From Escherichia coli (GTDB lineage Bacteria > Pseudomonadota > Gammaproteobacteria > Enterobacterales > Enterobacteriaceae): a DNA stretch of 64,000 nucleotides. The translations under genes were made by a program, and so were the position numbers. The notes under the pieces are model-generated. The model was not told the DNA's origin and did not search any database. It was given only the letters and a program-made list of their open reading frames with translations. Location of the stretch: assembly GCF_003019035.1 (NCBI RefSeq), contig NZ_CP027447.1; one strand, 5' to 3'. Below are positions 21,640 to 49,083 of the stretch, piece by piece. Every line of letters starts with the position of its first letter. Position 1 is the first letter of the stretch.

Positions 21640-21724
21640 GCCGAAGTGGCGAAATCGGTAGACGCAGTTGATTCAAAATCAACCGTAGAAATACGTGCCG
21701 GTTCGAGTCCGGCCTTCGGCACCA
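21640..21724 (+). tRNA. leuX: tRNA-Leu (anticodon CAA), 85 nt with long variable arm and encoded CCA
   Basis: GCCGAAGTGGCGAAATCGGTAGACGCAGTTGATTCAAAATCAACCGTAGAAATACGTGCCGGTTCGAGTCCGGCCTTCGGCACCA: acceptor stem GCCGAAG/CTTCGGC, anticodon loop tTCAAaa, T-arm GGTTCGAGTCC. Confidence 0.95.
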
Positions 21725-21913
21725 TACAAAGCTTTTTTTAAGTCTACTAACGTCTACTTTAGTCCATAAAAACAGTAAGTTAAGCGAGTTTCTGACTTGG
21801 CTTAGTCTGTTAACGTCTACTCAATTCCTTGAACATATACCAACCGATGATGGTATAACTGATGGTATTCCCGGTTCGATTGATTTTGATACCAACACAG
21901 GAGGTATCAACTG

Positions 21914-23161
21914 ATGGCTCTCACGGATATCAAAGTTAGGACTACCAAGCCCTCTGACAAACCCTTCAAACTTACTGATGGGCAGGGTATGCACCTCCTG
22001 GTCAACCCCAATGGTTCAAAATACTGGCGACTCCAATACCGTTTCGATGGCAAACAAAAAGTTTTAGCATTGGGTGTTTATCCAATGGTCTCTCTTGGTG
22101 AAGCTCGCAGGAAACGAGATGAGGCCAAAAAGTTGGTATCTGATGGTATCGACCCTTCCGAGAAGAAAAAAGCAGACAAGATCGAGCAGAGCGAAGCCCT
22201 GACATTCGAAGCTGTTGCAAGGGACTGGCATACTGCCTGTAAAAGGAAATGGTCAGATTCCCATAGTGAAAGGGTTTTAAAGAGCCTTGAAGACAACCTT
22301 TTCTCTTCCATAGGACAGAGAAAAATAGCCGAGCTTAAAACTAAGGATCTTCTCGAACCAGTCAAAACTGTTGCGGCTTCTGGACGACTAGAAGTAGCTG
22401 CTCGTCTGCAACAACGAACCACAGCAATCATGCGATATGCCGTCCAGAATGGCTTAATTGACTACAATCCAGCACAAGATATGTCTGGGGCAATTACAGT
22501 TGCGAAACGAACCCACAGACCAGCCTTACCATTTGATAGGTTCTCAGAGCTTTTAGAGCGCATTGAAAGCTTTAAAGGTAGGAAACTTACTAAATTAGTT
22601 GTGAAGCTGACATTGCTCATTTTTATCCGTTCCAGTGAACTCCGATTCGCAAGATGGTCGGAGATCGACTTTGAAAATGCGATGTGGACTATCCCTGGAG
22701 AACGCGAGCCATTACCAGGAGTCAAACATTCCCATCGAGGCTCAAAAATGAAGACCCCACACCTCGTGCCGTTAAGTCGTCAGGCCTTAGAACTTCTAAA
22801 AGTCATCAGAGAAATCAGCGGTGAATGCGACCTTGTATTCATTGGCGATCATGATTTCAGAAAACCTATGAGCGAAAACACAGTCAACAAGGCACTAAGG
22901 TCAATGGGTTATGACACAACCGTTGAGGTATGTGGGCATGGTTTTAGAGCAATGGCTTGTAGTGCTTTGATCGAGTCAGGAAAGTGGTCGAGAGATGCTG
23001 TTGAACGGCAGATGAGCCATCAGGAGCGGAACTCCGTTCGTGCCGCATACATTCATAAAGCTGAGCATTTGGACGAGCGTAGGTTGATGTTGCAGTGGTG
23101 GGCTGATTATCTTGATGAAACAACTAAGAGAAGAATTGCACCTTTCGATTTTAATAACTAA
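21914..23161 (+). CDS. P4-family tyrosine integrase (tRNA-associated)
   Basis: 415-aa protein with N-terminal Arm-type domain (MALTDIKVRTTKPSDKPFKLTDGQGMHLLVNPNGSKYWRLQYRF) and C-terminal catalytic region (..HGFRAM.., ..RAAYIH..); sits next to the tRNA as expected for IntB-like integrases. Confidence 0.9.
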   Translation: MALTDIKVRTTKPSDKPFKLTDGQGMHLLVNPNGSKYWRLQYRFDGKQKVLALGVYPMVSLGEARRKRDEAKKLVSDGIDPSEKKKADKIEQSEALTFEAVARDWHTACKRKWSDSHSERVLKSLEDNLFSSIGQRKIAELKTKDLLEPVKTVAASGRLEVAARLQQRTTAIMRYAVQNGLIDYNPAQDMSGAITVAKRTHRPALPFDRFSELLERIESFKGRKLTKLVVKLTLLIFIRSSELRFARWSEIDFENAMWTIPGEREPLPGVKHSHRGSKMKTPHLVPLSRQALELLKVIREISGECDLVFIGDHDFRKPMSENTVNKALRSMGYDTTVEVCGHGFRAMACSALIESGKWSRDAVERQMSHQERNSVRAAYIHKAEHLDERRLMLQWWADYLDETTKRRIAPFDFNN

Positions 23162-23230
23162 CTGATTTTTATAAGTAAAATGGCGTATTCAATAACCAAT
23201 TGAGACGCCATTTTTTTATTTGCGATTTAT

Positions 23231-24142
23231 GTGCTATTACGAAGTAAAGCTTTTTACAACGGAGTGGCATTAATGAAATCTTGGGTAAAAATGAATAGTT
23301 GGACATCAGAAGACACCAAAGCAGTGAAAACGTGGTTTGATTTGGACAAATATCGAGAGTTTGAAAACATTTCTATTAATATGCTTTACCATGAAATATG
23401 GGCGAGAACCTATTTTTTCAAACCAGTAATAGAAGAAGGAATGCAGAACACAGTATTGAAAAATTATATGCAGATATTGGATGGTGATCCTTTTCTTATC
23501 AAAGAGAAGCACTTAAATTATATGGATGCCGAAAATAAATTATATCAACCCCCATACTTTTTTATTACTACTGTTGATCGAATAGCAAATATCAGTTTTG
23601 ATTGTATGAGAAAGGCTTTATTCATTAGAGCAAATACAGAACAATATAAAATTGATTCCACTATTGAAAATGAATATATTTCCGAAAAAATTCCTGAACA
23701 GTTTCCTACTACGATTATGTTAGAAATCGATCTTGCGGGTGGAAGCGATGATGAGATAGCTGAGGCCCTGCGAGTATCATTACCACAATGGCGAAAAGTA
23801 AAAGGCGTTAAACCTGCACCACTTGATGCAGTCAGATTTGGTTATGGGGCAATAAAAAAATTAATTAGCTATCGAATTATTCCTATGCTTGATTTGCTCG
23901 CATGGTCAGAAAGAAAAAAAGTACTTCTGTCAGACGACAGATTATCTCGATTGCTATACACGGATGAAGATGATGATAAGGCGATTCGCCAAGGATATCA
24001 TATAAGAGATGCTGATCGGCCTTTCGCAATGAAAACTGTAGAAATTGATTTTTTAAGGCAATTTAACTTTTTTATCAATAAAAATCAGCATGTTAAAGAA
24101 ATGAGGGTTTCGGATGTTATGAAACTCTCAGATTCTGAGTGA
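23231..24142 (+). CDS. Hypothetical protein (303 aa), island cargo, no recognisable motif
   Basis: Long AT-rich ORF (GTG start in track; internal ATG candidates) between integrase and alpA. Confidence 0.5.
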   Translation: MLLRSKAFYNGVALMKSWVKMNSWTSEDTKAVKTWFDLDKYREFENISINMLYHEIWARTYFFKPVIEEGMQNTVLKNYMQILDGDPFLIKEKHLNYMDAENKLYQPPYFFITTVDRIANISFDCMRKALFIRANTEQYKIDSTIENEYISEKIPEQFPTTIMLEIDLAGGSDDEIAEALRVSLPQWRKVKGVKPAPLDAVRFGYGAIKKLISYRIIPMLDLLAWSERKKVLLSDDRLSRLLYTDEDDDKAIRQGYHIRDADRPFAMKTVEIDFLRQFNFFINKNQHVKEMRVSDVMKLSDSE

Positions 24143-24262
24143 TATGAATATCCAGAGACTCATAGTTTCGAGCCAAGGATGGCTCTGGTGTTCGTAATCT
24201 CGCTTCATCCATTCGAAATTCATTTGTACTGTAGCCCTGTAGACACAACAGAGGACATACAC

Positions 24263-24466
24263 ATGGAAAATCAAGCTCGTCTCATCCGTTTACCAGAAGT
24301 CATGAAGAAAACTGGATTTGGTAAAGCGTGGATCTATAGGCTTATCAGCAAGGGATGTTTTCCTCAACCAGTAAAAATTGGTCTTCGTGCAGTAGCTTTT
24401 GTAGAGAGCGAAGTAGATAATTGGATCCATGAAACGATTAGTTCTTCGAGAAATAAAGTTTCTTAG
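24263..24466 (+). CDS. alpA: AlpA-like phage/island transcriptional regulator (small HTH, 67 aa)
   Basis: MENQARLIRLPEVMKKTGFGKAWIYRLISKGCFPQPVKIGLRAVAFVESEVDNWI has the AlpA-family pattern (RLP.V...TG......Y......FP.P.K.G.R...W...E...W); the track ORF is extended upstream. Confidence 0.75.
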   Translation: MENQARLIRLPEVMKKTGFGKAWIYRLISKGCFPQPVKIGLRAVAFVESEVDNWIHETISSSRNKVS

Positions 24467-24913
24467 AAAATAAATAAAGAATATTAACACAAATTGTTAG
24501 ACTTTATGGTTGATGTTAATTAAGAGACGATTATGGTATATTAATATAATTTATGAGGTTGAATCCATTTTAAAAAATGGGGTAATAAAAAGGGGCTGTT
24601 TAGAAGCAATTACGCATTGTTATTCTAAATATGAACTAATTAATTATAAAATATCTTTTTTATTTTAAAATGATTATTGTGGTTCTTTCTTCAAATGTCA
24701 ATTTCCTTAACCTATTAAATTAGTGGATCACCGTAATGTATAAGAGTGAACCGTTTGTATTAGATTTTACTTATGAATATTTAGTCGTTTTCACTCAGGC
24801 ATCAAATTGTTGATGAATATATGTTGATTTTGATTCAAAACGAAATAGTCTATTTCTTATACATTTGATATAAAGGGTTATATTGGTATGCTGTACATCA
24901 GAAATGATATGCT

Positions 24914-25168
24914 TTATTTGTTTTTCGCTAATGCTACATATCGTCTATAATATGCAATTGCGCTATATTTTGTCGTATTCATTTTTTCAGCAACTTCTTT
25001 CCATTTTAAACCTGATGATCTTAGTTCAAAAGCAAGCTTTCTTTTTTCAGTTGCTACCCTTTCGTAATTCTCACGGCTAATGCCGTAATATTTTATCACT
25101 GTTGAACGAGATACACCTGCAGCCTTAGCTAAGTCTTTTGCTTTAATTAATTTCCCATGAATTATCAT
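24914..25168 (-). CDS. Small HTH DNA-binding protein (84 aa), co-transcribed downstream of the Rep-like gene
   Basis: HTH-like segment AKDLAKAAGVSRSTVIKYY; its start overlaps the stop of the upstream gene by 4 nt. Confidence 0.5.
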   Translation of the reverse strand: MIIHGKLIKAKDLAKAAGVSRSTVIKYYGISRENYERVATEKRKLAFELRSSGLKWKEVAEKMNTTKYSAIAYYRRYVALAKNK

Positions 25169-26013
25169 AATAATGCCTCCAATGCTATTTCTAATTTTTT
25201 TTGCGTTTTTCTTGTTTTTTTTGCTCTTATTGATTGTATTGTCGAAAATTTCTGAATTGAAAAATTACGCCATGTCCATTTACAAATACTGCTACAAATT
25301 TGTTTTGTCTCTTCATGAGATAATGGATTATGAGGGTTGCTATGATTATTAAGTAAAGTCGCTTTTGATAGCATATCATAAAAAAAACAACGATAGTTTT
25401 TACGTTTTTTAAAACTTAATACTTCTTTATAAGCAATAATTCTTAAATCTTCGAATAAGTTAACGTTGCGGCCCAACCCATGTATAACACTTTTCTTTTT
25501 ACTCGAAATTCTTATTTTGTCTGGGATAAAATCTAAGAGGTATTGTAGATCATATGCTGAAGTATTTGTCCATGTCGTTCTCCATTCATGAATGTTGAGA
25601 GGGTTTTTCATTAAAACATCAGCATAAGCTCTGTCTGCATCTAACCTTTCTGTAAATCCACTCTGAACAATAGCGGCCAATTTTAAAGGCTTATCTCTTG
25701 CCATGTCTGTTTTTAATACCGGATTTTTTAAAGCATAAAGTAAATGAGCATGGCCATTTTTTATGTTTTGTATGATCGTATTTGGTATTGGTAAACCAAC
25801 TAAGTCCCATGCGACCGCTCCATATTTGTGATCTATATCAAAAACCAAACCGTTAATAAAAGATTTGTTATTAAAACAAATATATTTCTTTAGAAGGGCT
25901 TTGTCTTTAGGGGCTCTGTATACCCCATCTCTAAAATCATCACAGCATAAAGCATATTTTTGAATTTGCAGCTTGTATTTTTCTACATTATATATATTTT
26001 CGTCATTTAACAT
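25165..26013 (-). CDS. Replication initiator-like protein (Replicase/primase-like N-terminal domain)
   Basis: 282-aa protein with FDIDHKYGAVAWDLVGLPIPN and NGHAHLLYAL (HxH) motifs reminiscent of plasmid/satellite Rep proteins; family assignment is by motif resemblance only. Confidence 0.5.
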   Translation of the reverse strand: MLNDENIYNVEKYKLQIQKYALCCDDFRDGVYRAPKDKALLKKYICFNNKSFINGLVFDIDHKYGAVAWDLVGLPIPNTIIQNIKNGHAHLLYALKNPVLKTDMARDKPLKLAAIVQSGFTERLDADRAYADVLMKNPLNIHEWRTTWTNTSAYDLQYLLDFIPDKIRISSKKKSVIHGLGRNVNLFEDLRIIAYKEVLSFKKRKNYRCFFYDMLSKATLLNNHSNPHNPLSHEETKQICSSICKWTWRNFSIQKFSTIQSIRAKKTRKTQKKLEIALEALL

Positions 26014-26561
26014 TTATAATCTCCTTATTGTATTCTCCATTTTATTGTATTTTTCTAAAAAGGAGATGCATATTATTTTTATAATTATTTAATAAGGGAT
26101 TTTAAAAGTTTGTCAAGTGTCTAAAAGCCATATCAGATATTAGGTGTTTCTTTTAGGGTTATAATAACAAGAGGGAGGTGCTTCAATGACAATATAAATG
26201 ATGATAGTTTTTTTTAAGTGCAGCTCATAAATCATTATGGCATATTGTAATATGATTACTTTTTATCTGATTAAAAGTAAATATCGATCGCAGATCTTTT
26301 AATTTAATTGTTAATTCAATAATCTGGTCTTGTCAAATTTTCATGGTTAAACTTCAACTTCCTTTATATACAAATCAGATATTTTAAATTTATAACAACA
26401 ATATTTGTAAGCCATAGGAGATATAGAATGTATAAGTTAATTTTTTTTCCAGTTAATACCTGTGATTGTTTTTATTTTGGCGATATAGTTCATTACTTGA
26501 CAATTTAAAAAAAGAATATATAAGTATTTAGATTGATATAGTTAAATTTAAGGATGGTACC

Positions 26562-26975
26562 ATGCAAAATACAAAGCTTAATATTATGGAGCGATATTTG
26601 ATACTGCTCGATAAGTTTGTCGATAAAATTATCGAATCAGGCGTTTCTGAACAACAATTGATCGAGAAGTCGTATCTGTTCTGTGCAGGGTATTATATTA
26701 AGTACCAGCAAGAAATTGAAAGGCTGACATTCTCAAATAAAGATGTCGTTTTAACATTTCTATTATTTTCATACTACAATTATATTAATGAGTTAGATAA
26801 TAATTTAATTAACAAAGTAAGGATGAGGAGAACATGTTCATTACTTATTAATTTCATTGTCGATAATGGTAGTCAGACAGAAAAAATTTATGTGCAGGAA
26901 AAAAAGAAGTACAAATCTTATACATTGAAAAGGGATTTATCAGTAAAGAATAAAAGGAAAAAATATGGTTTATAA
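26562..26975 (+). CDS. Hypothetical protein (137 aa)
   Basis: AT-rich ORF with plausible RBS (AAGGATGG) a few bases upstream; no recognisable motif. Confidence 0.4.
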   Translation: MQNTKLNIMERYLILLDKFVDKIIESGVSEQQLIEKSYLFCAGYYIKYQQEIERLTFSNKDVVLTFLLFSYYNYINELDNNLINKVRMRRTCSLLINFIVDNGSQTEKIYVQEKKKYKSYTLKRDLSVKNKRKKYGL

Positions 26976-27292
26976 CAATATGAAAACTTCCGTGATTTGA
27001 ATTTAAGGCTTTCACCTTATTATCCGATGCCTACATGAAAAATGCCAAAACTTACATAGCTTGCTCCAGCACAAGCAATGTAGAAATCAACTTTATCTCC
27101 TTTAAACATAATCGTGATTGTTTCGTTGCTTCCATGGAGTACCGATGGCAGGGATTTATATCGTTGTCTGGGACTGACCGTTATGCTTATTGTATAAACA
27201 TTTATCTTTGCTGCCAGAAGGGCTCAGACTGTAAGATTCGATAAGGATGCTAACATATTCTATTCGCGATTTTACCGTTCAAGATTTTAATT

Positions 27293-27964
27293 TTAAAATT
27301 GTATTGACTTAATAACGCTTCTGAGTGCGTTATCAAATCTTTGGCTTCTTCTCTTTATCCATTTAATGCAGGTAAAGCTTCCAAGTCGTGAGGCAAAATA
27401 GGTTAACCACATATATTTGTGTTCGTCAAAAACATATCCAGATTTAAACCCCCATGGCAATACAAAAAATGAAATAATCGCAATGCAACAAAGCAAGATA
27501 AATATGGTGGAAAAAAATTTAGGAACAGGCATCGCCCTATAATAAAATGCCATCGAAGCGTTAGGGAAAAGTACGGTGAGAAACGCAGGGATAATAATTG
27601 TCTTTCTATTTAAGTTGACTTCGTATTCACCCGTGGTTGTATTAACAATGAGAGCATCTTTGAAGGCACTAAATGAACCATTAACTCTATACTGGCGAAG
27701 CTCGTATTTACAAATTTTGTGAGATTTTATAAATGTGATACCAAAGGCTGGAATCTGTGTCTCATCCCCCGTATCGGTTTTAACCCAAACTTGGTCAGTA
27801 ATTGGGAGGGGACTGATGACAGTAGCAGAAAAGGTCTCAACGAACATGTAGGTTTCGCCGAACAACTCGAATTTAGGTGTTGTCATCTCAGCTTTCGTTT
27901 CCCGGCGACTTAACGGGTCAATGTTAACTTCTTTATTGCAGTGTTTCGTGATGGAGCTGCTCAT
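27293..27964 (-). CDS. Hypothetical protein with C-terminal transmembrane segments (223 aa)
   Basis: N-terminal soluble region followed by hydrophobic stretches (IIIPAFLTVLFPNASMAFYY, FSTIFILLCCIAIISFFVL). Confidence 0.45.
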   Translation of the reverse strand: MSSSITKHCNKEVNIDPLSRRETKAEMTTPKFELFGETYMFVETFSATVISPLPITDQVWVKTDTGDETQIPAFGITFIKSHKICKYELRQYRVNGSFSAFKDALIVNTTTGEYEVNLNRKTIIIPAFLTVLFPNASMAFYYRAMPVPKFFSTIFILLCCIAIISFFVLPWGFKSGYVFDEHKYMWLTYFASRLGSFTCIKWIKRRSQRFDNALRSVIKSIQF

Positions 27965-28249
27965 ACAAATTCCTATGTTTAAGATGAAATCAGATTCGAT
28001 GATGTATGAAATCGTTCAGTTCCAAAGATGGAATAATGTCTGCCATTTCCAGTACCGGTGCATTAATGAAAAGGATATAGACTAGTAAAATCATAATGTT
28101 AGCATTACAGTGTGAACTAACATTTTGACTAGGTTTACAGGAAACGCAAATCACTTGTACCGATCGATTAACAAATAATGATAGATTATAGCTATCAGTC
28201 TATCTTTATCGATCGGTATAAACGATCAATTTTAGGGGTATGTTGCTTA

Positions 28250-29518
28250 CTAAAATCTACATGTAAGGTGGTAATGTTGCCTTGGCGGCACTAAATTGCC
28301 GTCAAGTAAAGGCTCCACAAAAGTGTTTTTGGGATTGATGGGATGGATTTCTATCTTCATCGCTTCAGTGATGACTTGGTGCTTTGCGGGGCGTCTAAGA
28401 ATTGGGATTTTAAGTTGTCTCAGCAGACGATAAATCGTATCAAGGTAAGGGATGGTTTCCATCCATCTGAATGCTGAGACCTCGTAGCTTTGATTAGGCA
28501 TCTCTTTTACGGCTATAGTAGCTATCGCTTTCTTACTCCCTGCTAAAGCTTCCGAGGAACACTTCTCTTCTACATAAGCGACAGCACTTTCGTCTTTACC
28601 TGCATGCCTATCAATAATAAAAGCTTCGAAGGAGTTTTTAACGTTTTCCTTTAATATTTCGTTTGGATTCGCTTTAGTGATAGTTGCTTTTAGGTCAAAC
28701 AGAAAGCCGTTATCGCGTTCTGGTCTATAATCGAGTTTACCCTGCAAGGTCGACCATGAATAACACTTAGCTAATTGCGAAGCTTTGAAAGCAATCCCGG
28801 CGTATTCGAATGAGAAACCATTCATTTTACCTGTAGATGTGATATTGGGTAATGCATTAATATTTTGTTCAAAAAGCTGTTGGACAAACTCAGTGGTCGA
28901 TACTCTTTTAGAAACTAACGTCTCTAAAGCGTTCTGGATGATGGTTTTTGGGCATTGTTCACCTGTCCTTTTCTCTTGCATCGCTTCATTTCGTGTTTTT
29001 TTTCGTTTTAGTTTAGGGCAGGGCAATGCTAAAGAGGTTTTTGTTTTAGGGCCTTTGGTTCTTAGTAGCGAATAGTCGTGTTCAAGCTGTTGGATAATGC
29101 GTGTACTAATCAGGTTTTCATTTTTTCCGAGATAGAGTTTGCCTGTAATACGGTCTATGCGGCTGGCGATAATGTGGATGTGTTGACCGACCGCATCGTC
29201 ATGCAACACGTAGCATCTGAGATGCGTTTCCGAGAAGCCGATGCGCTTCATATAGTCATCAGCTATAGCGGACCACTGAGCATCGGTTAGCACTTCGTCC
29301 TTTGGTAAACGAAGCGAATTGTGCCAAACAGGTTTATCCACATCAGGGCGAAGCGTTTTTGTTAGATTGAATTCAGTGATCAGATCTTTCGCTGCACACC
29401 CATCCATATTTCCCCCGATCACGACAGGAGCTACCCTATGATGAGAATCTGGTTTTAACGTATAGAGGACGATCCCGATAAAATTCTTACCTCTGCGGAT
29501 CTTTTGCATTCCCTTCAT
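28250..29518 (-). CDS. Mobilization relaxase (MobA/MobL-type)
   Basis: Relaxase three-histidine motif HDDAVGQHIHIIASRID (HxDx4HxH); probable start MKGMQKIRRG at 29518 (track ORF extends to 29569); overlaps the upstream mobC. Confidence 0.75.
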   Translation of the reverse strand: MKGMQKIRRGKNFIGIVLYTLKPDSHHRVAPVVIGGNMDGCAAKDLITEFNLTKTLRPDVDKPVWHNSLRLPKDEVLTDAQWSAIADDYMKRIGFSETHLRCYVLHDDAVGQHIHIIASRIDRITGKLYLGKNENLISTRIIQQLEHDYSLLRTKGPKTKTSLALPCPKLKRKKTRNEAMQEKRTGEQCPKTIIQNALETLVSKRVSTTEFVQQLFEQNINALPNITSTGKMNGFSFEYAGIAFKASQLAKCYSWSTLQGKLDYRPERDNGFLFDLKATITKANPNEILKENVKNSFEAFIIDRHAGKDESAVAYVEEKCSSEALAGSKKAIATIAVKEMPNQSYEVSAFRWMETIPYLDTIYRLLRQLKIPILRRPAKHQVITEAMKIEIHPINPKNTFVEPLLDGNLVPPRQHYHLTCRF

Positions 29519-29924
29519 CGGAGTCTCCCCACAAGTCGGCGGTGATGAGATGTAAGCGAAGATCGGCAATTTGTCGCTTCACTGCAAATAGTTCCGTTTT
29601 TGTCAGGTGGCTTCCGGTACTTTTGTTATCAAGGTGGGCAACAATTTTATTTAGTTTCTGTGAAAGGTCAGCTAAAGATCTCCATGCTTTTATATTAATA
29701 GCTGGAACAACACCAGGAAGCGCATTAAGAAAAGATAAACGAAGCCATTCCCCTTTGCGATGCTGGCCACGTTTTTCATTTAGAAGCGTCAGCTCTTTAT
29801 CATTAAGCCTGACACTGACGCAATGATTACGAATTTGCTTGCGTGAAAGCTTCGTTTCGCAAGAGCTTCTACAGGAAGCTCGCGTATTTATAATAGTCTT
29901 ATTGAAATTATTATTACTGACCAT
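29487..29924 (-). CDS. MobC-like relaxosome accessory protein
   Basis: 145-aa basic protein with a MobC-like LSQKLNKIVAHLDNK motif (similar to the NLNQiARhlN signature), immediately upstream of and overlapping the relaxase gene. Confidence 0.6.
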   Translation of the reverse strand: MVSNNNFNKTIINTRASCRSSCETKLSRKQIRNHCVSVRLNDKELTLLNEKRGQHRKGEWLRLSFLNALPGVVPAINIKAWRSLADLSQKLNKIVAHLDNKSTGSHLTKTELFAVKRQIADLRLHLITADLWGDSDEGNAKDPQR

Positions 29925-30053
29925 ATTAACCTCTTTTTAAATATATAAATAAAAATATTATTTTATTTATATAATAAAATAGTCAGATGTCAATATACAT
30001 GTATTATATTGATTTTAACTTTTTTCAACTGAAAGGCGAAAAAACAAGGGGAA

Positions 30054-30085
30054 ACTCAATGAAGCAGCGTAGCGCTTCGTTGAGT
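30054..30085. promoter_or_regulatory. Candidate oriT inverted repeat upstream of mobC
   Basis: ACTCAATGAAGC...GCTTCGTTGAGT near-perfect inverted repeat (11/12 arms) in the AT-rich leader of the mobC-mobA operon. Confidence 0.4.
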
Positions 30086-30148
30086 TAGCCCTTGCTTTAA
30101 CAATATTGACCAAAATCTCTTTTTAATATAAAATGAATCCTAAGAGGG

Positions 30149-30724
30149 ATGGAGGTATACATGCTCAATGATAATAAAATTCGCACTGCATTAATAAATT
30201 TTTTACTGGCTAAAAAACCAGCGCCAGAAAGGATTATTGAAGAATTGCATATCGAGAACGGAAGAGCAATAGCTGATGTCGTAGCAGCATATAGTTATTT
30301 GCATTGCTACGAGATTAAAGGAGAGACTGATTCAATTGGAAGAATCCTTACTCAAGCTAATTATTATAATACTTCTTTCAACAAAATTACACTTGTAACT
30401 ACAAAAAATCATTTAACATGGGCATTAAAGCGTTCCCCATCCTTCTGGGGAATCATATTAGTAGAATTAAAAGATAATAACATTACTTTCAAATATATAA
30501 GGGGGGCTAAAGATAATATTTTCTTCAGAAAAGAAAATGCTTTCATGATGTTATGGAAGGACGAAATGTTGAAGGTAGCAAATGAAGCCTCTGTACCAGT
30601 TAAAAGATCACACACGAGGATGGAAATAGCCGAAATGCTTAGTAGTTCGCTTAAGAAAAGTGATGCTTTGCAAACTATACAAAGCATCATATCTAATCGA
30701 CTAAAATTAAGGGATGCAGTGTAA
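30149..30724 (+). CDS. Hypothetical protein with PD-(D/E)xK nuclease-like signature (191 aa)
   Basis: Motif ..ENGRAIADVVAAYSYLHCYEIKGE.. (hydrophobic-D ... E-I-K) matches the PD-(D/E)xK core pattern; convergent with and overlapping the 3' end of the three-gene operon. Confidence 0.5.
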   Translation: MEVYMLNDNKIRTALINFLLAKKPAPERIIEELHIENGRAIADVVAAYSYLHCYEIKGETDSIGRILTQANYYNTSFNKITLVTTKNHLTWALKRSPSFWGIILVELKDNNITFKYIRGAKDNIFFRKENAFMMLWKDEMLKVANEASVPVKRSHTRMEIAEMLSSSLKKSDALQTIQSIISNRLKLRDAV

Positions 30725-31822
30725 AACAAACTTAATATGTGAAGTCAGCATGGCTTTAATCCAGGATGAGGGATTACCTGCTTTATCTGGTTTTTTAGGC
30801 GAATAACTACTTCTATCATAAACATATTGTTCCCCATATGAGAATGTAGTTGCCCTGAAGAATTTTTGGTCATGGATTATTGTGGCAATATCATAATATT
30901 GACCATTTCCTCTCTCATCATTCTGGAAAGATCCACCTCTAACACAAAACATATTATTCTTATACGTATAAAATACTTTTGGTGCGGAAACTTTTCTAAA
31001 TAGCTTCGGATCTAAATCTATATCAGAATAATCAGGGCTAACAATTCCATAATCCCCGTATATAATATTACCAATTTTCTTTTCGTTAACTAATGTGTCC
31101 CAAATTTTCCACTCCGCTCTCGTGAACGATTTTCTTTGATAGGTTTCAAGTAATGAGGAAATATTAGCCGGTATCGAAGAGGCTGATATAATGCACTTAT
31201 CAAAGTGAAAGTCTTTATTTACATTTAGAATAAAGTATTCAGCCATGTCAGTTAGTCGCTTTATGTCAGTTGGCTGAATGTATCGTAGATCTATAATTAA
31301 GTGCAATTGTTCTACTTTCAGATTTCTAATGATTACCATCATCTTCAAGAGATGCATTTTTGTTATTTTATAGCTCTCAATATCTTCAGCAACTAACCTT
31401 ATGGCTAATTTCCCTCCGTTAATTGATAGGCTATCGTAAACACTTTTATTGTGTTTCTCTAATCGGTTGATACCGATCACAGGAATATATAAGTAATCAC
31501 GAAAAAGAGATAGTATATATTCGTATTGCTCCACTCCATCAATTAATATTTCATCATCCAGGTCATAATTATCTATGTAAAATTCCATGTTTTTAAATAA
31601 AGCTTTATTATCCAATCTCTTTTTGAAAGAATGAGCTTTATTCAATACATTTTCCATTGTTTGATTATTTGATTCTCTTGGTATATCGAAGAATGGAGTG
31701 ATTTGTGTGAAGATTGTAGCATCTTTTTTGTAAAGCTCTTCGAGGGCTTGAGTTTCGTTGCTTTTTGCTTTTAAAAATGGGATATATTTACTCATTGAAA
31801 CCAAGCTCCCTTCTGACATCAA
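30707..31822 (-). CDS. Hypothetical protein (371 aa), third gene of the ImmA-containing operon
   Basis: Long AT-rich ORF whose start overlaps the stop of the ImmA/IrrE gene; no recognisable catalytic motif. Confidence 0.6.
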   Translation of the reverse strand: MMSEGSLVSMSKYIPFLKAKSNETQALEELYKKDATIFTQITPFFDIPRESNNQTMENVLNKAHSFKKRLDNKALFKNMEFYIDNYDLDDEILIDGVEQYEYILSLFRDYLYIPVIGINRLEKHNKSVYDSLSINGGKLAIRLVAEDIESYKITKMHLLKMMVIIRNLKVEQLHLIIDLRYIQPTDIKRLTDMAEYFILNVNKDFHFDKCIISASSIPANISSLLETYQRKSFTRAEWKIWDTLVNEKKIGNIIYGDYGIVSPDYSDIDLDPKLFRKVSAPKVFYTYKNNMFCVRGGSFQNDERGNGQYYDIATIIHDQKFFRATTFSYGEQYVYDRSSYSPKKPDKAGNPSSWIKAMLTSHIKFVLHCIP

Positions 31823-32717
31823 TTGAATTAACTAAACTTGAGAAGATAACATAATTTTTGTGTTTATTTCTTACCGCACCAGCAGCGATTATTGGGTGTA
31901 TATTAAATCTTTCGCAGACAGATATTAGACTATCAGGTTCATTAAATGTCCGAAAGACAGCTCTATTTGCTTCTCTGGGTATCAGACTATCAGCTGCGGC
32001 TCTGTTAGCCTCAATCTCTACGTCTGTTTCTGTGTCAATGTCTAAATCATCGAGGATTGGCGTATCTAATTTATCATAGTGCAGAGCAATGTGGGATAAT
32101 TCATGCATTAATGTAAACCAAAAGTAATCATATCTCGAATATCTTAAACTTAGACCTATGACTGGTGTTTTATTTGGTAAACAAAAGGTACAGCCATCTA
32201 ACTTCATACCTTTGAATGATTTTTCAATTATTAGAATAATACCATATTCTTCTTTAAGGATTCTTGAAATATAATGAATAGATTGTACATCCCTGCTCAA
32301 ACTTGCAATTATTCCGAGGTTTTCAAAATCCAGATCTGTGAAGACCTTTGTATTTCCTTTTAAATAGGTGTTTAATGACTTTTTTTCTATTAATGATAAC
32401 CATAAATTTATGAGTTCAGAATTAGCATCATCTCTTTTTCTAAATAGTTTATTTTTGTTAAATGTTAAATTTTTTGCTACATCAAGTAGGAATTGATTTT
32501 CGTTTTCCATTTCTGGTTTACGGGAAATAATATCTTTTATTTTTTTGCTGTTTTTTATCTTTTGGAAATTTAGTAAAATTTCCAAATCAGACTCACTAAA
32601 CTGATTTGATACAAAGAAATCTTTCTCATGCGGCATTTGAAATTCCTCCGAGAGTTGATGCGACAACCTGTGATGCCTCATAAAATCGGAGATTTTCTTT
32701 TTCATGGTCGACGCCAA
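31788..32717 (-). CDS. ImmA/IrrE-family Zn-metallopeptidase (COG2856-type) with ~190-aa N-terminal extension
   Basis: HExxH motif WFTLMHELSHIALH followed by the third zinc-ligand region EIEANRAAADSLIP, characteristic of ImmA/IrrE peptidases. Confidence 0.8.
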   Translation of the reverse strand: MASTMKKKISDFMRHHRLSHQLSEEFQMPHEKDFFVSNQFSESDLEILLNFQKIKNSKKIKDIISRKPEMENENQFLLDVAKNLTFNKNKLFRKRDDANSELINLWLSLIEKKSLNTYLKGNTKVFTDLDFENLGIIASLSRDVQSIHYISRILKEEYGIILIIEKSFKGMKLDGCTFCLPNKTPVIGLSLRYSRYDYFWFTLMHELSHIALHYDKLDTPILDDLDIDTETDVEIEANRAAADSLIPREANRAVFRTFNEPDSLISVCERFNIHPIIAAGAVRNKHKNYVIFSSLVNSIDVRRELGFNE

Positions 32718-33273
32718 AATCAGTCATGCCAAGATGGTTATAGAAACCCTCTGCACTTGGGAGTGCATGTAGGCAAAAACCAGGTCTATACCCCCAGTTT
32801 GAACAGGCATAATTAATTGTATGTTGGATAAGCTCTTTGCCTACTCCACTATATTTAGGGGTAAAGTTAGGACGAGGACGATTCCAGTATGCTGTTGCAA
32901 TATAATCCACGTAGAAAATTTTATTATTATCAAATCGACTTTCTTTTGGATGGTAAAGAACACAAACACCTTGAACTGCGTCGTTTATTTGCAGAAAAAA
33001 CCACTGATAATCATCACCATTACATTGCAAAAGCTTGCGGCACCAGTCCCAATGCCAATCAGAAAGGCTGTTATCTGCCAGAATTTTCCTTGCTAACTCG
33101 TTATCAGTGGCCATACCGGGGTTAGCAGTAATTAGAGCTGACAATAAATCAGCACGATAGGCACCCCATTTGCTCTGCAAGTCAACCACTTTAGCATAGT
33201 CAATCCCTACGTGAATTTGGTAATCAACTGATTTTCCTGAACAATTTTCAACGACCATAAGCTCCCTTTCCAT
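32626..33273 (-). CDS. GNAT-fold acetyltransferase-like protein (215 aa), first gene of the operon
   Basis: GNAT-like motifs ..FYVDYIATAY..RP.....GVGKELIQ.. and ..SAEGFYNHLGMTDFG..; its stop overlaps the start region of the ImmA gene. Confidence 0.5.
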   Translation of the reverse strand: MERELMVVENCSGKSVDYQIHVGIDYAKVVDLQSKWGAYRADLLSALITANPGMATDNELARKILADNSLSDWHWDWCRKLLQCNGDDYQWFFLQINDAVQGVCVLYHPKESRFDNNKIFYVDYIATAYWNRPRPNFTPKYSGVGKELIQHTINYACSNWGYRPGFCLHALPSAEGFYNHLGMTDFGVDHEKENLRFYEASQVVASTLGGISNAA

Positions 33274-33505
33274 TGTGTCGGCTCATTTTGACTAATAATA
33301 CAACTTTATAGTCTTTAAGAATGCTCTGCTGGTCAAATTTCTTATTTGATCTATAGAAGGCTATGTTTTGAAGCTGGTTGTTAATCTGGTTATGATGTGG
33401 TCATATTAGAATTGGTAAATCAAACCAATTTTGTTGGTATGAATGATGGTATCTTCGCTAATGTAATATGCTTTATTCACTAAAAATCATAAGGATAGTT
33501 GCGAT

Positions 33506-33529
33506 GTTCGAGTCCGGCATCCGCACCAC
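33506..33529 (+). repeat. Degenerate direct repeat of the leuX 3' end (candidate att site at the distal island boundary)
   Basis: GTTCGAGTCCGGCATCCGCACCAC versus leuX GTTCGAGTCCGGCCTTCGGCACCA: 13 identical bases followed by 8 of 11 matching with one gap. Confidence 0.5.
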
Positions 33530-34203
33530 ACTGTATGCAAATCGAGTCGCTCAAGAGCGGCTTTTTTTGTGTCTGAAATCACCCATATCCGTGCAGTATA
33601 TAGGCCTGCCAGAAAAGCAATTCAGTATTCTTCATTTTGTAGTCGATGGTCCCAAGTTTGCTCTGGCTGGAAGCTGCATCGTCCACATTACGTGGGCAGG
33701 GTGGTTTCGCTATGCTACTTGAACGTTTTGACCATGTGGCTCAGGTAGCATATCAAAAGACGTCATTTTGTCTCCACGCCCACCTTGGTGAACATTCAAT
33801 AAATAGTTTCGGTCGAGAGCAGTTATGTAGGGCTAGCAGACGAAATGCGCAGACATCTTGTTGAAGACAATTTTACTGACCACCTGAGAACGCTATTCTA
33901 CCGAATAATATTTATTATCTTGGTGAATAATGATGATTACCTGTGTAACTATGGTTTTATGCTGATGGGACCGGCAGTACAATTTCTGTAGTGTACTCGC
34001 AATTTCAGGTCTCTGGCGTTTATTCTGGTGCAAAGGATGTATGTGATGAAAACTTTGCTACCATGCCATTAAATGCGACCAATATCGGATTATCCATCAG
34101 TTGCTTGTTGTAGATTTCATTGGTTATAAAAATGCAAGGTGTAAAAGATGAAATTTATAATTATTAGTTAAGTGGCTAGTTTTATAGTAATTTAGACAAT
34201 AGG

Positions 34204-36252
34204 ATGTATGGAAAAATGGAAAAAGTTTATGATACCACTAGAATTAGTAATCTTGCTAACGACCCGAAACAGTTTTGTTCTTTTTTTTGTGAGTACATAA
34301 AAAGAGATGATATTAGTATAGATATCGCCTTGGATGTGCTGAGAATATCTTCCATCTATTATAATAGATTTTCAGTTCAGACTGAAGTTGAGTATAACAA
34401 TACATTCAAAAAATGTATTAATGAGCTAGTAAACTCATTTCCTGATAACATTGAACTAATCTCTGAGTTCGAGAGTCAATGTAAAATTATGCATGATATA
34501 AATAATTCTTTCTTTGCGGCTACAAAATGTGCTGGTATTTGGCGTAAAAATACAAAAAAATCACATGCATTAATACTTAATCTCATCATGTTTTGTGAGA
34601 TGTTTTTATCATTATTATCATCCTTGGTTGTGGTCAATGATCCTAAAAAAATGAAGAGGATTTTTCCATTGTTTATCGTTTCTGAAAATATTAATATTCA
34701 TGCTGAACCTGATATCGAATATTTTCGAGTTATCGATAGGGCATTTGATGAGGTAGCCAATTACACCGGAAGAATATTTTCTTATTTACGGACTCATGGG
34801 CCATTGAAACTAACTTCTTGTGTGAATAAACAAACCTTGCTTTCAATGGGAGGGTACCTTAATGAGTGGAATGTTTTTGACTCATTAAGCAGAGTAAGAG
34901 ACTTTTTCAGACTAAGTAGTGCAGTATTTACAAAATTGGATAATAACATTTACTCTCTTGAGGTTGATAGTTTTTGTTTATACCGAGATTATGAGATTGC
35001 AAGAAATAGACTAATGATGAGAGCGTCACATCTATATAGCGAAGTTCATGAATTTAGTAACAAACATTTTCATCTAAATAGTTGGGTAAAGGATCATATG
35101 CCATCTTACTTAAATTCTGATGGCGTTTTTAGCTCATTTCATCTAAGCGAGTTGGAAAATATGTCTCCTGATGACCTTCATGAAGAATATGGGAATATAT
35201 CATTATTTAATTGGGTGCACGCTTATCAATGTTTAGTCGAGTTATCTAAAGAAGAAATGAGCAAAAGATTTTCATCGACAAAACCTATACCCCTACAGTT
35301 GGATCGCTGGCTGATCATAAAAAGCCGTGAGAGTTGGTTATCATTCTTTCAACGTAAGGGGATTGCAGTAGATGCAGCAAAAAAACTGATAGATTATTTT
35401 ACCTTCAATTCAAAATCACATGATCTTAATGATTGCCCATTTATTCCCTGTATGGACGGTTTATGCTTAATGCCTGCATTAATAGCAAATAGCTCAGTGA
35501 CTCGCTCTCTAATGTCATTATTTGGTTCCAAAAAAATTTCTCAAGCAAGTAAAGGGCGATTTCATGAGCAACAATTTATAAAACAAGTTCGTGATGCGGG
35601 GATTAAAGCTTCTCCAATTGATGCTCATGCTAATTATCAGTGCGATTGCGTGATTCTCCTGGATGATTGTTTGATTTTTACAGAACTAAAATCAAATGGT
35701 CAACCAATATATTATGGTAAGTACTATCAGCAAGTGTGTAACATCGTTGGAGATAGCTCATTAATACATGATCATAATAATAAATTTATGCGTTCTTATT
35801 TTCAACAAATAAATCGAATTTCTGAACATTATCTTAATCATCTTAATGTGATCATTAAAGAATTCGAACTACCATCAACATGGCAACCCAAAGGTGTGTA
35901 TAAGCTTATTGTTACTACAACTATGCTCGGTGGGAAATATCATGTGGATGATACATATGTAGCGGACAAATATGCATTATCTAGTTTTTTTCAACGAATA
36001 CCTGGAGTGATATATCAAACAAATGAAAATGGAAAAATGGCGAAAAATATCATTGATGGGTTTGAGTGTTGCGAAGGGGAAATCACTATCGATAAGTTTA
36101 TAGATTATCTTTCCTCTTTGCCCAGTATTAATGCTGTACGTAAAAATATAAAAAAATTAACTTATAGTGTTCGATTTAATGAAAAATTAGTCCATCACCC
36201 TTATTATGATTCTTGGGCTTTTGGCCCATATATTCGTAAGGGAAATGATTAG
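34204..36252 (+). CDS. Large hypothetical protein (682 aa), AT-rich, possible C-terminal PD-(D/E)xK-like motif
   Basis: Uninterrupted 2 kb ORF with strong terminator downstream; C-terminal stretch CDCVILLDDCLIFTELKS has a D...E.K pattern; otherwise unrecognised. Confidence 0.6.
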   Translation: MYGKMEKVYDTTRISNLANDPKQFCSFFCEYIKRDDISIDIALDVLRISSIYYNRFSVQTEVEYNNTFKKCINELVNSFPDNIELISEFESQCKIMHDINNSFFAATKCAGIWRKNTKKSHALILNLIMFCEMFLSLLSSLVVVNDPKKMKRIFPLFIVSENINIHAEPDIEYFRVIDRAFDEVANYTGRIFSYLRTHGPLKLTSCVNKQTLLSMGGYLNEWNVFDSLSRVRDFFRLSSAVFTKLDNNIYSLEVDSFCLYRDYEIARNRLMMRASHLYSEVHEFSNKHFHLNSWVKDHMPSYLNSDGVFSSFHLSELENMSPDDLHEEYGNISLFNWVHAYQCLVELSKEEMSKRFSSTKPIPLQLDRWLIIKSRESWLSFFQRKGIAVDAAKKLIDYFTFNSKSHDLNDCPFIPCMDGLCLMPALIANSSVTRSLMSLFGSKKISQASKGRFHEQQFIKQVRDAGIKASPIDAHANYQCDCVILLDDCLIFTELKSNGQPIYYGKYYQQVCNIVGDSSLIHDHNNKFMRSYFQQINRISEHYLNHLNVIIKEFELPSTWQPKGVYKLIVTTTMLGGKYHVDDTYVADKYALSSFFQRIPGVIYQTNENGKMAKNIIDGFECCEGEITIDKFIDYLSSLPSINAVRKNIKKLTYSVRFNEKLVHHPYYDSWAFGPYIRKGND

Positions 36253-42299: not shown

Positions 42300-42902
42300 A
42301 TGAAGAATAAGGCTGATAACAAAAAAAGGAACTTCCTGACCCATAGTGAAATCGAATCACTCCTTAAAGCAGCAAATACCGGGCCTCATGCAGCACGTAA
42401 TTATTGTCTGACTTTGCTTTGTTTTATTCATGGTTTCCGGGCGAGTGAAATTTGTCGATTGAGGATTTCGGATATTGATCTTAAGGCAAAGTGTATATAT
42501 ATCCATCGATTAAAAAAAGGCTTTTCAACAACGCACCCGCTATTGAACAAAGAAGTTCAGGCTTTAAAAAACTGGTTGAGTATCCGTACTTCTTATCCGC
42601 ATGCTGAGAGCGAGTGGGTATTTTTATCACGTAAGGGGAATCCGCTTTCTCGGCAACAGTTTTACCATATTATCTCGACTTCTGGTGGTAATGCCGGGTT
42701 GTCACTGGAGATTCATCCGCACATGTTACGCCATTCGTGTGGTTTTGCTTTGGCGAATATGGGAATAGATACGCGACTTATCCAGGATTATCTTGGGCAT
42801 CGCAATATTCGTCATACTGTCTGGTATACCGCCAGCAATGCAGGGCGTTTTTACGGCATCTGGGATAGAGCCAGAGGGAGACAGCGTCACGCTGTTTTAT
42901 AG
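42300..42902 (+). CDS. fimB: Type 1 fimbriae switch recombinase FimB (tyrosine recombinase)
   Basis: 200-aa MKNKADNKKRNFLTHSEIESLLKAANTGPHAARNY... with the conserved HxxRH..Y catalytic region. Confidence 0.95.
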   Translation: MKNKADNKKRNFLTHSEIESLLKAANTGPHAARNYCLTLLCFIHGFRASEICRLRISDIDLKAKCIYIHRLKKGFSTTHPLLNKEVQALKNWLSIRTSYPHAESEWVFLSRKGNPLSRQQFYHIISTSGGNAGLSLEIHPHMLRHSCGFALANMGIDTRLIQDYLGHRNIRHTVWYTASNAGRFYGIWDRARGRQRHAVL

Positions 42903-43976: not shown

Positions 43977-44023
43977 TTTAACTTATTGATAATAAAGTTA
44001 AAAAACAAATAAATACAAGACAA

Positions 44024-44337: not shown

Positions 44338-44456
44338 ATGTTTCATCTTTTGGGGGGAAACTGTGCAGTGTTGGCAGTCAAACTCGTTGACAAAACAAAG
44401 CGTACAGAACGACTGCCCATGTCGATTTAGAAATAGTTTTTTTAAAGGAAAGCAGC

Positions 44457-45005: not shown

Positions 45006-45069
45006 CCTACCCAGGATCAGGGACGTCATTACGGGCAGGGATGCCCACCCTTGTGCGATAAAAATAACG

Positions 45070-45609: not shown

Positions 45610-45645
45610 TTGTTCAGCAGATAATGTGATAACAGGAACAGGACA

Positions 45646-49074: not shown

Positions 49075-49083
49075 GGGGGCGTG

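Follow-up and report, generated by a model that had tools for sequence, protein, structure and literature searches.

MOBP relaxases nick DNA immediately 3' of a repeat, within the sequence (C/T)ATCCTG(C/T) (PMC3772185). Three plasmid systems of this superfamily were compared with the locus described here: the TraJ-TraI-oriT module of IncP-1 (RP4/R751; MOBP11), the NikA-NikB-oriT module of IncI1 (R64; MOBP12) and IncQ2 (pTF-FC2/pRAS3-type), which is classed as MOBP14 (PMC6856555; PMC3394729). On chromosomes, EARL islands encode a MOBQ relaxase of 506 aa as well as TraD, and the described example, ICEKp258.2, resides at an asparagine tRNA gene (PMC10763509). A preprint on chromosomal 'hitchers', either with a relaxase (iMOB) or without one (iOriT), defines 52 origin families (bioRxiv 10.64898/2026.01.13.699239). 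The general picture of mobilizable islands with defence genes beside the origin of transfer (oriT) has already been described, and the island reported here, in leuX of Escherichia coli, is an ordinary example of it.

We analysed a 64-kb stretch of E. coli DNA (RefSeq GCF_003019035.1, contig NZ_CP027447.1), hereafter the window. Positions 28250-30098 are probably the DNA-processing module of an integrative mobilizable element of 11.8 kb (21701-33528) that has inserted at the tRNA-Leu gene leuX. ARAGORN placed leuX at 21640-21724, and the 3' end of this tRNA-Leu(CAA) gene is attL (21701-21724, plus strand, GTTCGAGTCCGGCCTTCGGCACCA). It forms a direct repeat with attR (33506-33528, plus strand, GTTCGAGTCCGGCATCCGCACCA), a degenerate copy of the tRNA-Leu 3' end that matches attL at about 20 of 24 nt and differs by substitutions and one indel. 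Next to attL lies the gene for a 415-aa tyrosine integrase (21914-23161, plus strand), an ORF also annotated by RefSeq in a 99% identical island; its 97% identical homologue in a related locus (L009) contains Arm-DNA-bind_3, Phage_int_M and Phage_integrase domains. The integrase gene is followed by that of a DUF6387 protein (23231-24142, plus strand), a backbone gene common to EARL-type islands (PMC10763509), and by an AlpA-family helix-turn-helix gene (24179-24466, plus strand; RefSeq start at about 24263). The AlpA-family product is a likely excision factor or regulator, matching PHROG excisionase/regulator families with E=1.6e-11, and PF05930 was found in its homologues. A replication module (24914-26013, minus strand) consists of a Rep initiator (25165-26013, minus strand), for which a 98% identical homologue contains PF03090, and an 84-aa DNA-binding protein (24914-25168, minus strand). 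The island Rep is 32% identical (E=1e-43) to that of a 4.8-kb Serratia mob plasmid with the same gene layout. Two further backbone proteins are conserved: one of 137 aa (26562-26975, plus strand; 29 of 81 related loci), with no match in NCBIfam, PHROGs or PADLOC, and one of 223 aa encoded next to the relaxase gene (27293-27964, minus strand; 14 of 81 loci), with no match in NCBIfam, Pfam, PADLOC or PHROGs.

Neither the ORF inventory nor family searches revealed coupling-protein, VirB4 or mating-pore genes in the island; a coupling protein or VirB4 can be discounted because the longest island ORF is not above 423 aa. No helper conjugative element was visible within the window. The island combines an integrase, att repeats at a tRNA gene, an AlpA-type factor, a Rep and a mob module with its own relaxase and origin, but has no coupling or pore genes, and it is therefore taken to be an integrative mobilizable element. 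Its integrase, AlpA-family factor and DUF6387 protein resemble those of EARL/ROD21-like islands such as ICEKp258.2 (PMC10763509); unlike these, it carries a relaxase of the PF03432/MOBP type with a MobC/NikA partner, lacks TraD and sits at a tRNA-Leu gene. Salmonella relatives with 63% identity were considered as ROD21/EARL relaxases, an assignment that we rejected in view of the MOBQ relaxase and TraD of EARL islands (PMC10763509).

The relaxase gene lies in the minus-strand ORF at 28250-29569, but its start had to be corrected: all 11 aligned homologues begin with MKGMQKI, which places the start at the ATG at 29518 and yields a protein of 422 aa (28250-29518, minus strand). The relaxase matched PF03432 (E=1.9e-24, residues 23-152), with no other domain in Pfam, and NCBIfam TraI/MobA(P) (E=7.5e-17). 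Its score of 61.5 bits against NF041893 (TraI_MobP_relax) is far under the curated cut-off of 250 and therefore indicates a distant clade and not a TraI equivalog. The predicted three-histidine motif HxDx4HxH is present as H106-D107-D108-AVGQ-H113-I-H115 (29174-29203), and the catalytic tyrosine, on which the original prediction hinged, was found as well. BLASTP aligned Tyr19 (codon 29462-29464) with Tyr22 of R751 TraI, which we take to be the catalytic tyrosine, and H106xD108x4H113xH115 with TraI H109xD111x4H116xH118; the alignment covered residues 12-268 (E=2e-5) and extended to the middle region of TraI, with an identity of only 23%. Among 80 unique N-termini, Tyr19, H106 and H115 were each kept in 79, H113 in 78 and D108 in 77. 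With R64 NikB, BLASTP aligned the His motif only, and sequence and profile searches of the PDB with the relaxase gave no match at E<=1.

The relaxase is 37% identical over its N-terminal 280 aa to IncQ2 plasmid relaxases, which MOB-suite types as MOBP. The IncQ2 match runs directly into long further ORFs, and in IncQ2 the MobA protein carries a fused primase, whereas the island relaxase is a stand-alone protein of 422 aa with an unrelated C-terminal part. By these similarities the relaxase is assigned to the MOBP superfamily, with IncQ2 (MOBP14) as its nearest typed plasmid relatives, and its clade is a chromosomal one of its own in the Enterobacterales.

An ORF for a 145-aa protein (29487-29924, minus strand) lies immediately before the relaxase gene, beside the origin, and overlaps the relaxase start by 32 nt. 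An overlap of the two genes had been noted in the original prediction, and the accessory and relaxase genes are adjacent or overlapping in 68 of the 81 related loci. The label 'MobC-like' held by transitive homology but not by a direct Pfam MobC match. The protein itself gave no direct match to MobC (PF05713) or NikA-like (PF21983), the one Pfam match being a weak one to DUF6937 (E=8e-4), and its homologues carried PF21983 in 6 and PF05713 in 4 of 18 cases. In a tblastn search it showed 39% identity (E=2.9e-9) to an IncQ2 plasmid gene with the annotation MobC. An hhalign comparison of the accessory family profile with the annotated IncQ2 MobC gave a probability of 99.9%, a value that is partly circular because the profile includes IncQ2-like members. 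The ORF, its homologues, tblastn and hhalign together point to a relaxosome accessory protein of the MobC/NikA family, although the same profile gave no significant hhalign similarity to the single sequences of R751 TraJ and R64 NikA, in which respect it differs from the IncP-1 and IncI1 systems. A putative promoter for mobC-relaxase (29965-29993, minus strand) was read from the sequence, with TTGACA (29993-29988), a 16-17-nt spacer and TATAAA/ATAAAT. Most of the related upstream regions have TTGACA in the same position; a consensus promoter scanner did not list the TTGACA-N16-TATAAA site.

The inverted repeat first noticed at 30054-30085 proved to be real and larger than described. The main repeat spans 30041-30098, with inner arms at 30053-30065 and 30074-30086 around an 8-nt loop and outer arms CAAGGG/CCCTTG; a repeat finder reported 25-nt arms (30041-30065/30074-30098) that are 84% complementary. 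As single-stranded DNA, 30015-30105 folds at -21.7 kcal/mol (z=-5.66), and none of 200 shuffles folded as well. Across 46 related loci the position of the repeat is constant while its sequence co-varies: of the 13 pairs in the inner stem, 9 vary on both sides, and 82% of cells are paired, compared with 20-41% when the partner is slid. None of 500 shuffles reached the observed co-variation for four of five measures; for the fifth, the count of further pair types, 9 of 500 did. Both the fold and the co-variation are well beyond chance. A second small inverted repeat (30020-30044), formed by GAAAAAA (30020-30026) and TTTTTTC (30038-30044), appears as a hairpin in the fold and is conserved in relatives, including cores located 1-4 kb from mobC.

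The nick-region core AGTTAGCCCTTGCTT (30083-30097, plus strand) contains the motif TTAGCCCTTGCT, which is nearly invariant beside the repeat in the 46 loci. Conservation extends over a core block of roughly 78 nt (30020-30097), which is found upstream of mobC in 49 loci; in 8 others it lies at a distance of 1.1-3.7 kb upstream. On the strand that points away from mobC, the 8 nt AGCCCTTG separate the repeat from a C. R751 and R64 show the same order of accessory gene, repeat, 8 nt and nick on the strand that points away from that gene, and their geometry is ACATCCTG|C/T (R751 nick region: AACTTCAC ACATCCTG|C). From position, conservation and this geometry, the nick is predicted on the plus strand between G30094 and C30095; plus-strand stretches of the nick region that could serve as relaxase substrate are GAGTTAGCCCTTGCTTT and GCTTCGTTGAGTTAGCCCTTGCTTTAACA. 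The origin element is quasi-palindromic, and a mirror nick-like site, GAGTTTCCCCTTG|TTT, is present on the other strand (stretch GCTTCATTGAGTTTCCCCTTGTTTTTTCG). The plus strand was chosen because distant relatives lack the mirror site and because of the analogy to R751 and R64.

The nick octamer is AGCCCTTG here but ACATCCTG in the IncP-1/IncI1 systems, and the hexamer reads CCCTTG, compared with ATCCTG in MOBP11/P2. Distant IncQ2-like plasmids have a related core, TTACACCTTGCT in place of TTAGCCCTTGCT, beside a short repeat upstream of the accessory gene; their octamer, ACACCTTG|C, is intermediate between that of the island and (C/T)ATCCTG(C/T). The predicted island nick follows the MOBP pattern in position and spacing (repeat plus 8 nt). 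The closest approach to an RP4-type ATCCTG in the leader is ATCCTA at the ribosome-binding site of the sce7726-family gene, which is not conserved in relatives and was rejected as the nick. A full-text literature search for the core motif and YATCCTG returned unrelated papers only. The likeness to IncQ2 thus covers the relaxase N-terminus, the accessory protein and the core; the island differs in its ColE2-like Rep, its chromosomal integration and its much longer repeat and, being chromosomal, is not an extrachromosomal IncQ-type replicon. From IncP-1 and IncI1 it also differs in having no coupling-protein or pore genes. In sum, the predicted mobC-mobA pair with a candidate oriT stands: relaxase, accessory protein and conserved repeat-plus-core appear intact and are laid out as in MOBP plasmids.

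Homology and layout suggest the following scheme for all steps of transfer. The integrase and the AlpA-type factor would excise the island as a circle, which the ColE2-like Rep may keep replicating. The MobC/NikA-type protein would bind the inverted repeat at 30041-30098, and the relaxase would cut the plus strand 8 nt 3' of the repeat (AGCCCTTG|CTT, between G30094 and C30095), in a reaction that uses Tyr19 and a metal coordinated by H106, H113 and H115, and would remain attached to the 5' end. Since the island has neither a coupling protein nor a pore, the relaxase-DNA complex would pass to those of a co-resident conjugative plasmid or element. Transfer would proceed 5' to 3' toward higher coordinates, so that the recipient would receive the defence cargo (sce7726-like and PD-Lambda-2-like genes) at the start and mobC, the relaxase gene and the repeat at the end. 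In the recipient, the relaxase would rejoin the strand at the repeat-plus-core site and the island would integrate at leuX.

The distribution of the module was assessed in 5426 complete E. coli genomes. A related origin core was found in 611 of these, always on the chromosome, and 420 contained related relaxase DNA; a megablast search of 72,556 plasmids with 28000-30300 gave no match. The locus resembles the iMOB/iOriT hitchers (bioRxiv 10.64898/2026.01.13.699239), with a chromosomal island, a relaxase, an origin upstream of the relaxase that belongs to a family found on chromosomes and not plasmids, and defence genes beside that origin. The exact island occurs in 3 of the 5426 genomes, two of which have a 472-bp deletion (window 29150-29621) that destroys the mob genes by removing the MobC C-terminus and relaxase residues 1-124; this loss in two of three copies suggests weak selection for mobility. 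Such rarity and damage, together with the substitutions and indel that separate attR from attL, would fit a decaying remnant, once mobilizable but now immobile through its degenerate attR, the want of a compatible helper or undetected point defects. We consider this quite unlikely for the window copy, in which the module genes are all full length, the catalytic residues are all kept and the origin core is intact; moreover, an island in Klebsiella michiganensis encodes proteins 94-98% identical to those of the window island, which implies recent transfer between genera.

Two other readings concern what the repeat and the relaxase do. A long hairpin followed by TTTTTT on the mobC-sense strand, with a terminator-like site listed by a scanner at 30078-30061, could make the repeat mainly a terminator or insulator between cargo and mob operon, or a MobC operator, the true nick lying elsewhere; MobC-type accessory proteins often repress their own operon. 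We regard this as very improbable: a terminator needs structure only, yet TTAGCCCTTGCT is kept even in GC-rich IncQ2-like plasmids without the T-run, the core retains the repeat at 1-4 kb from mobC, and the nick regions of R751 and R64 agree with it in spacing and strand. Terminator or operator and origin roles of the repeat are not mutually exclusive. It is less probable still, and highly unlikely, that the relaxase serves mainly as a rolling-circle replication initiator or site-specific recombinase of the excised island and not in conjugative transfer. Relaxases of some integrative elements do also drive replication of the element, and the break of inter-island homology at the predicted nick could reflect relaxase-mediated recombination; the island, however, has its own dedicated Rep initiator, and its relaxase gene, accessory gene and origin follow the arrangement of mobilizable plasmids.

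Directly 3' of the predicted nick lies the variable cargo (30149-33273), made up of a sce7726-family gene (30149-30724, plus strand), a PD-Lambda-2_C-like gene (30707-31822, minus strand), a PD-Lambda-2_B/ImmA-like gene (31788-32717, minus strand) and a GNAT gene (32626-33273, minus strand). Because the GNAT gene has no PADLOC match, a complete three-gene PD-Lambda-2 system is unsupported, and we refer to PD-Lambda-2-like genes. The cargo genes of the window occur in none of the 81 related loci. Sequence conservation ends 2-3 nt beyond the predicted nick, where the variable defence cargo starts. When related loci that differ in cargo were compared in pairs (1317 comparisons), homology was nearly always lost within 1-4 nt of the core. 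The sharp junction persists even where backbones are 96-100% identical: between the window and the Klebsiella island, whose backbones show this level of identity, the core is 92% and the promoter side 48-68% identical, and the cargo is unrelated. A 25-nt cargo flank is common to loci with different repeat variants (L019/L030 and L022/L032). In every locus inspected the DNA at the junction is defence cargo, including Pycsar, DNA methyltransferases, PD-Lambda-2-like genes, a SIR2-family protein, an ATP-dependent nuclease with a UvrD-type helicase, a retron Ec48-family effector with reverse transcriptase, and ABC-three-component genes. In many E. coli the ssrA island contains the same origin core, in copies without a relaxase. 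The predicted nick might also be a precise cargo-exchange junction at which the relaxase joins strands, from a pseudo-site to the true origin. We think this unlikely; if true, strand joining by the relaxase would explain the sharp junction, the origin would work like a cargo-capture site, and the relaxase-less cores of the ssrA island would be second-order hitchers on this relaxase family.

The leuX island represents a possible route by which a small defence-carrying island may move between enterobacterial genera, and for a chromosomal relaxase clade it provides a concrete candidate oriT whose nick is predicted. MOB-suite classifies all three of the closest plasmid records as 'non-mobilizable', and typing schemes built around plasmids may thus overlook the clade. 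The origin-cargo junction and the relaxase-less origins offer leads on how defence genes are shuffled and spread.

The minus-strand open reading frame at 28250-29569, which the original prediction had called a relaxase, is present in the window, but its start had to be moved: 11 homologues of 63-96% identity all begin with MKGMQKI and the RefSeq annotation uses the same start, so the gene spans 28250-29518 (minus strand) and encodes 422 amino acids. The protein contains the Pfam relaxase domain PF03432 (E=1.9e-24), and its matches to the NCBIfam MOBP-type relaxase models are all sub-threshold. BLASTP alignment with R751 TraI (E=2e-5, residues 12-268) placed the predicted three-histidine motif, H106-D-D108-AVGQ-H113-I-H115, opposite H109-N-D111-TDNL-H116-I-H118, and Tyr19 opposite Tyr22. 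These residues are near-invariant among 80 unique N-termini of related loci (Tyr19, H106 and H115 in 79 each, H113 in 78 and D108 in 77); loss of the catalytic tyrosine, named originally as a finding that would speak against a relaxase, was not seen.

The relaxase start is overlapped by 32 nt by the accessory gene mobC (29487-29924, minus strand, 145 aa), as had been proposed. The accessory gene is a constant partner, adjacent to the relaxase gene in 68 of 81 loci. The window protein alone matched neither Pfam MobC nor any NCBIfam model; in an 18-member alignment of its family, Pfam NikA-like was matched by six members and MobC by four. With an IncQ2 plasmid gene annotated 'plasmid mobilization relaxosome protein MobC', the window protein shares 39% identity (E=2.9e-9); the family profile matched that gene's product with 99.9% probability, a partly circular value as the profile contains IncQ2-like members. 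The label MobC-like is correct by transitive homology, holding through homologues and not through a direct Pfam match.

Upstream of mobC, an inverted-repeat search gave 25-nt arms at 30041-30065 and 30074-30098 with 84% complementarity; the shorter repeat reported earlier at 30054-30085 is present as their 13-nt inner arms (30053-30065 and 30074-30086). As single-stranded DNA, 30015-30105 folds into two hairpins (-21.7 kcal/mol, z=-5.66), and no shuffle was equally stable. The region was compared with 76 related loci from species-representative genomes, several contigs with close homologues, and related plasmids. A conserved block upstream of mobC was found in 49 loci; on the mobC-sense strand it starts abruptly with AAGCAAGGGCTAAC, followed by the inverted repeat and then by another small repeat, TTTTTC...GAAAAA. 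In eight more loci, intervening genes separate this block from mobC, and it lies 1.1-3.7 kb upstream. The repeat keeps a constant position among loci while the arm sequences change in a compensatory manner, yielding 23 distinct arm pairs (for example AACTCAGC/GCTGAGTT, AACTGAGC/GCTCAGTT, AACCAAT.GATGC/GCATC.ATTGGTT, AACTTCG/CGAAGTT and TAACC/GGTTA). Among 46 aligned sequences, both members are changed in 9 of the 13 stem pairs, and 82% of the cells are paired, compared with 20-41% when the partner column is slid. The observed covariation was reached by none of 500 shuffles for four of five measures and by 9 of 500 for further pair types. The core adjoining the repeat, TTAGCCCTTGCT on the window plus strand, is nearly invariant; distantly related IncQ2-like plasmids of high GC content retain it as TTACACCTTGCT. 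Of its positions, 11 had been selected by the initial motif search, which placed no constraint on the invariant flanking base, on the repeat or on the constant location.

Cleavage by MOBP relaxases falls within (C/T)ATCCTG(C/T), immediately 3' to a repeat of this kind (PMC3772185). In R751, the strand that leads away from traJ is repeat...AACTTCAC ACATCCTG CCCGCC, and that reading away from nikA in R64 is ...ACAATTGC ACATCCTG TCCCG. The window plus strand, reading away from mobC, is ...GCTTCGTTGAGTT(30086) AGCCCTTG(30094) CTTT, and the corresponding stretch of an IncQ2 relative is ...CTGGTT ACACCTTG CTCCC. The window core differs from the ATCCTG of the consensus; the IncQ2 octamer is an intermediate that bridges it and the R751/R64 sequence, and all four agree in spacing (8 nt), in strand and in where the site lies with respect to the accessory gene. 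By this analogy, the nick is predicted between G30094 and C30095 on the plus strand. In RP4 and R64, the cut falls exactly at G|C and the spacing is 8 nt. The element is quasi-palindromic and offers a mirror site, GAGTTTCCCCTTG|TTT, on the opposite strand; the plus strand is preferred because several distant relatives (L005, L067 and the plasmid L004) lack the mirror site.

Functionally, these features describe what is probably a MOBP-type accessory protein, relaxase and origin. The nearest typed plasmid relatives of the module are IncQ2 plasmids, which are classed MOBP14 (PMC6856555, PMC3394729); an IncQ2 plasmid was rejected as the identity of the element. An EARL island was also rejected; the excision module is common to the window island and EARL/ROD21-like islands, which use a MOBQ relaxase and TraD (PMC10763509). 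A TraI equivalog was ruled out by the relaxase score, which is 61.5 bits where the cut-off is 250. Among plasmids, the relaxase is closest to OX345050.1, NZ_CP118679.1 and NZ_OW967880.1 (L003, L004 and L006), with 34-57% identity. Relaxase genes are annotated in two of them and all three are typed 'non-mobilizable' by MOB-suite according to PLSDB, so the scheme seems to overlook this relaxase clade.

The island begins in tRNA-Leu(CAA) (21640-21724), the last 24 nt of which are repeated in degenerate form at 33506-33528. Between the repeats lie an integrase, an AlpA-family protein matching PHROG excisionase/regulator families, a DUF6387 protein, an 84-aa DNA-binding protein, two conserved proteins with no assigned function, a Rep initiator (PF03090 in a 98% identical homologue), the mob module and the cargo. 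The Rep is 32% identical to that of a 4.8-kb Serratia mob plasmid with the same gene layout. No island open reading frame exceeds 423 aa, which implies the absence of a coupling protein and a pore ATPase; with its mob module, the island would fit the definition of an integrative mobilizable element. Window 28000-30300 matches the chromosome of E. coli S19-651 at 99.4% identity, has no near match among 72,556 plasmids, and is carried by only 3 of the 5426 complete E. coli genomes. The S19-651 island is surrounded by valS, pepA, lptFG, idn genes, ahr and tRNA-Leu, identifying the leuX locus.

The motif TGATGGTAT occurs six times in the window (0.6 expected; six reached by 0 of 100 shuffles). Two copies are in tandem at 21848-21868, just inside attL and upstream of the integrase gene, one is within the integrase gene (22141-22149), and one is at 33444-33452, 54 nt inside attR; the integrase may use these as arm-type binding sites. 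Downstream of attR (33529-36252), the window differs from S19-651: it has a 682-aa open reading frame (34204-36252) with no PADLOC match, and S19-651 carries, in tandem, another integrase together with a large defence island that includes a kinase, a HerA-type helicase and type I restriction genes. Judged from sizes and order only, a series of open reading frames at ~42300-51050 resembles fimB, fimE and fimA-H. Window 1001-3000 has a low GC content (0.34-0.37) within otherwise core-like DNA.

The relaxase family comprises 2960 database proteins at E<=1e-10; the best 120 of these are mostly ~420 aa, and many are encoded on large chromosomal contigs of Escherichia, Salmonella, Klebsiella, Enterobacter, Pectobacterium and related genera. 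Relatives of the relaxase were detected by blastn in 420 and of the origin core in 611 of 5426 complete E. coli genomes, all copies being chromosomal and none on plasmids. The window copy of the mob module is intact. Of the three E. coli genomes with the island, STEC17-183 and JNEC-KY179 have lost 472 bp (window 29150-29621). This deletion joins mobC and the relaxase gene into one frame-fused gene lacking relaxase residues 1-124, and with them Tyr19 and the histidine motif; its 400-aa product is still called 'relaxase' in RefSeq.

Five origin-core places were inspected. Mob genes are present in two; in the other three, the mobC/relaxase position is taken by a type I restriction system and an IS remnant. 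Of those three, two are located in an island next to an integrase, and one such island adjoins ssrA. The three are on the E. coli chromosomes L091 (9001-9090, with ssrA adjoining), L093 and L094 (both ~5001-5080), and each has the complete core (small repeat, main repeat, GTTAGCCCTTGCTT) and a remnant of the IS3 family. Their other side carries either ParB-ParB-recombinase-integrase or a nuclease and UvrD-type helicase pair. Many of the 611 core-matching genomes have the core at similar chromosome coordinates; relaxase-less copies may therefore be common.

The cargo on the immediate 3' side of the predicted nick comprises a sce7726-family gene, genes resembling PD-Lambda-2_C and PD-Lambda-2_B, and a GNAT gene. 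In PADLOC, this cargo (30149-33273) matched PD-Lambda-2_C (E=2.6e-47), PD-Lambda-2_B (E=3e-47) and, for the sce7726-family gene, the model 'cll'; the neighbouring GNAT gene had no PADLOC match. None of the 81 related loci contains the window cargo genes. The core is adjoined by a Pycsar-type cyclase and effector in L007, DNA methyltransferases in L009 (a Klebsiella michiganensis island), a SIR2-family protein in L092, an ATP-dependent nuclease and UvrD-type helicase in L093, and a retron Ec48-family effector and reverse transcriptase with ABC-three-component genes in L095. Past the predicted nick, 2-3 nt suffice for information content to fall from 2 bits to the background level, and identity is lost within 1-4 nt in nearly all of 1317 pairwise locus comparisons. 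The window and L009 share 96-100% identity across and beyond the relaxase gene, ~90% over the 3' portion of mobC, 48-68% over its 5' portion and the promoter, and 92% over the origin core; in the cargo, identity is no better than random. The stretch 29850-30030 is a recombination patch in a backbone that is otherwise almost identical. The L009 proteins are 78% (MobC) and 96% (relaxase) identical to those of the window. Two pairs of loci, L019/L030 and L022/L032, have 25-30 nt of identity immediately beyond the predicted nick and then diverge; the repeat variants and the relaxases differ clearly within each pair, relaxase identities to the window protein being 61% and 50%, and 55% and 49%, respectively.

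At the sequence level, the original reading of a mobC-relaxase pair with a candidate oriT in a mobilizable island is supported. The very sharp origin-cargo junction is the most unusual lead, and the cargo would be the leading region if the strand assignment is right. A 2026 preprint (bioRxiv 10.64898/2026.01.13.699239) describes origin families of chromosomal relaxases distinct from plasmid ones, common origin-only relaxase-less islands, and defence genes clustered beside origins. The leuX-island mob module fits this picture, as a clearly delimited instance of an element type that is already known.
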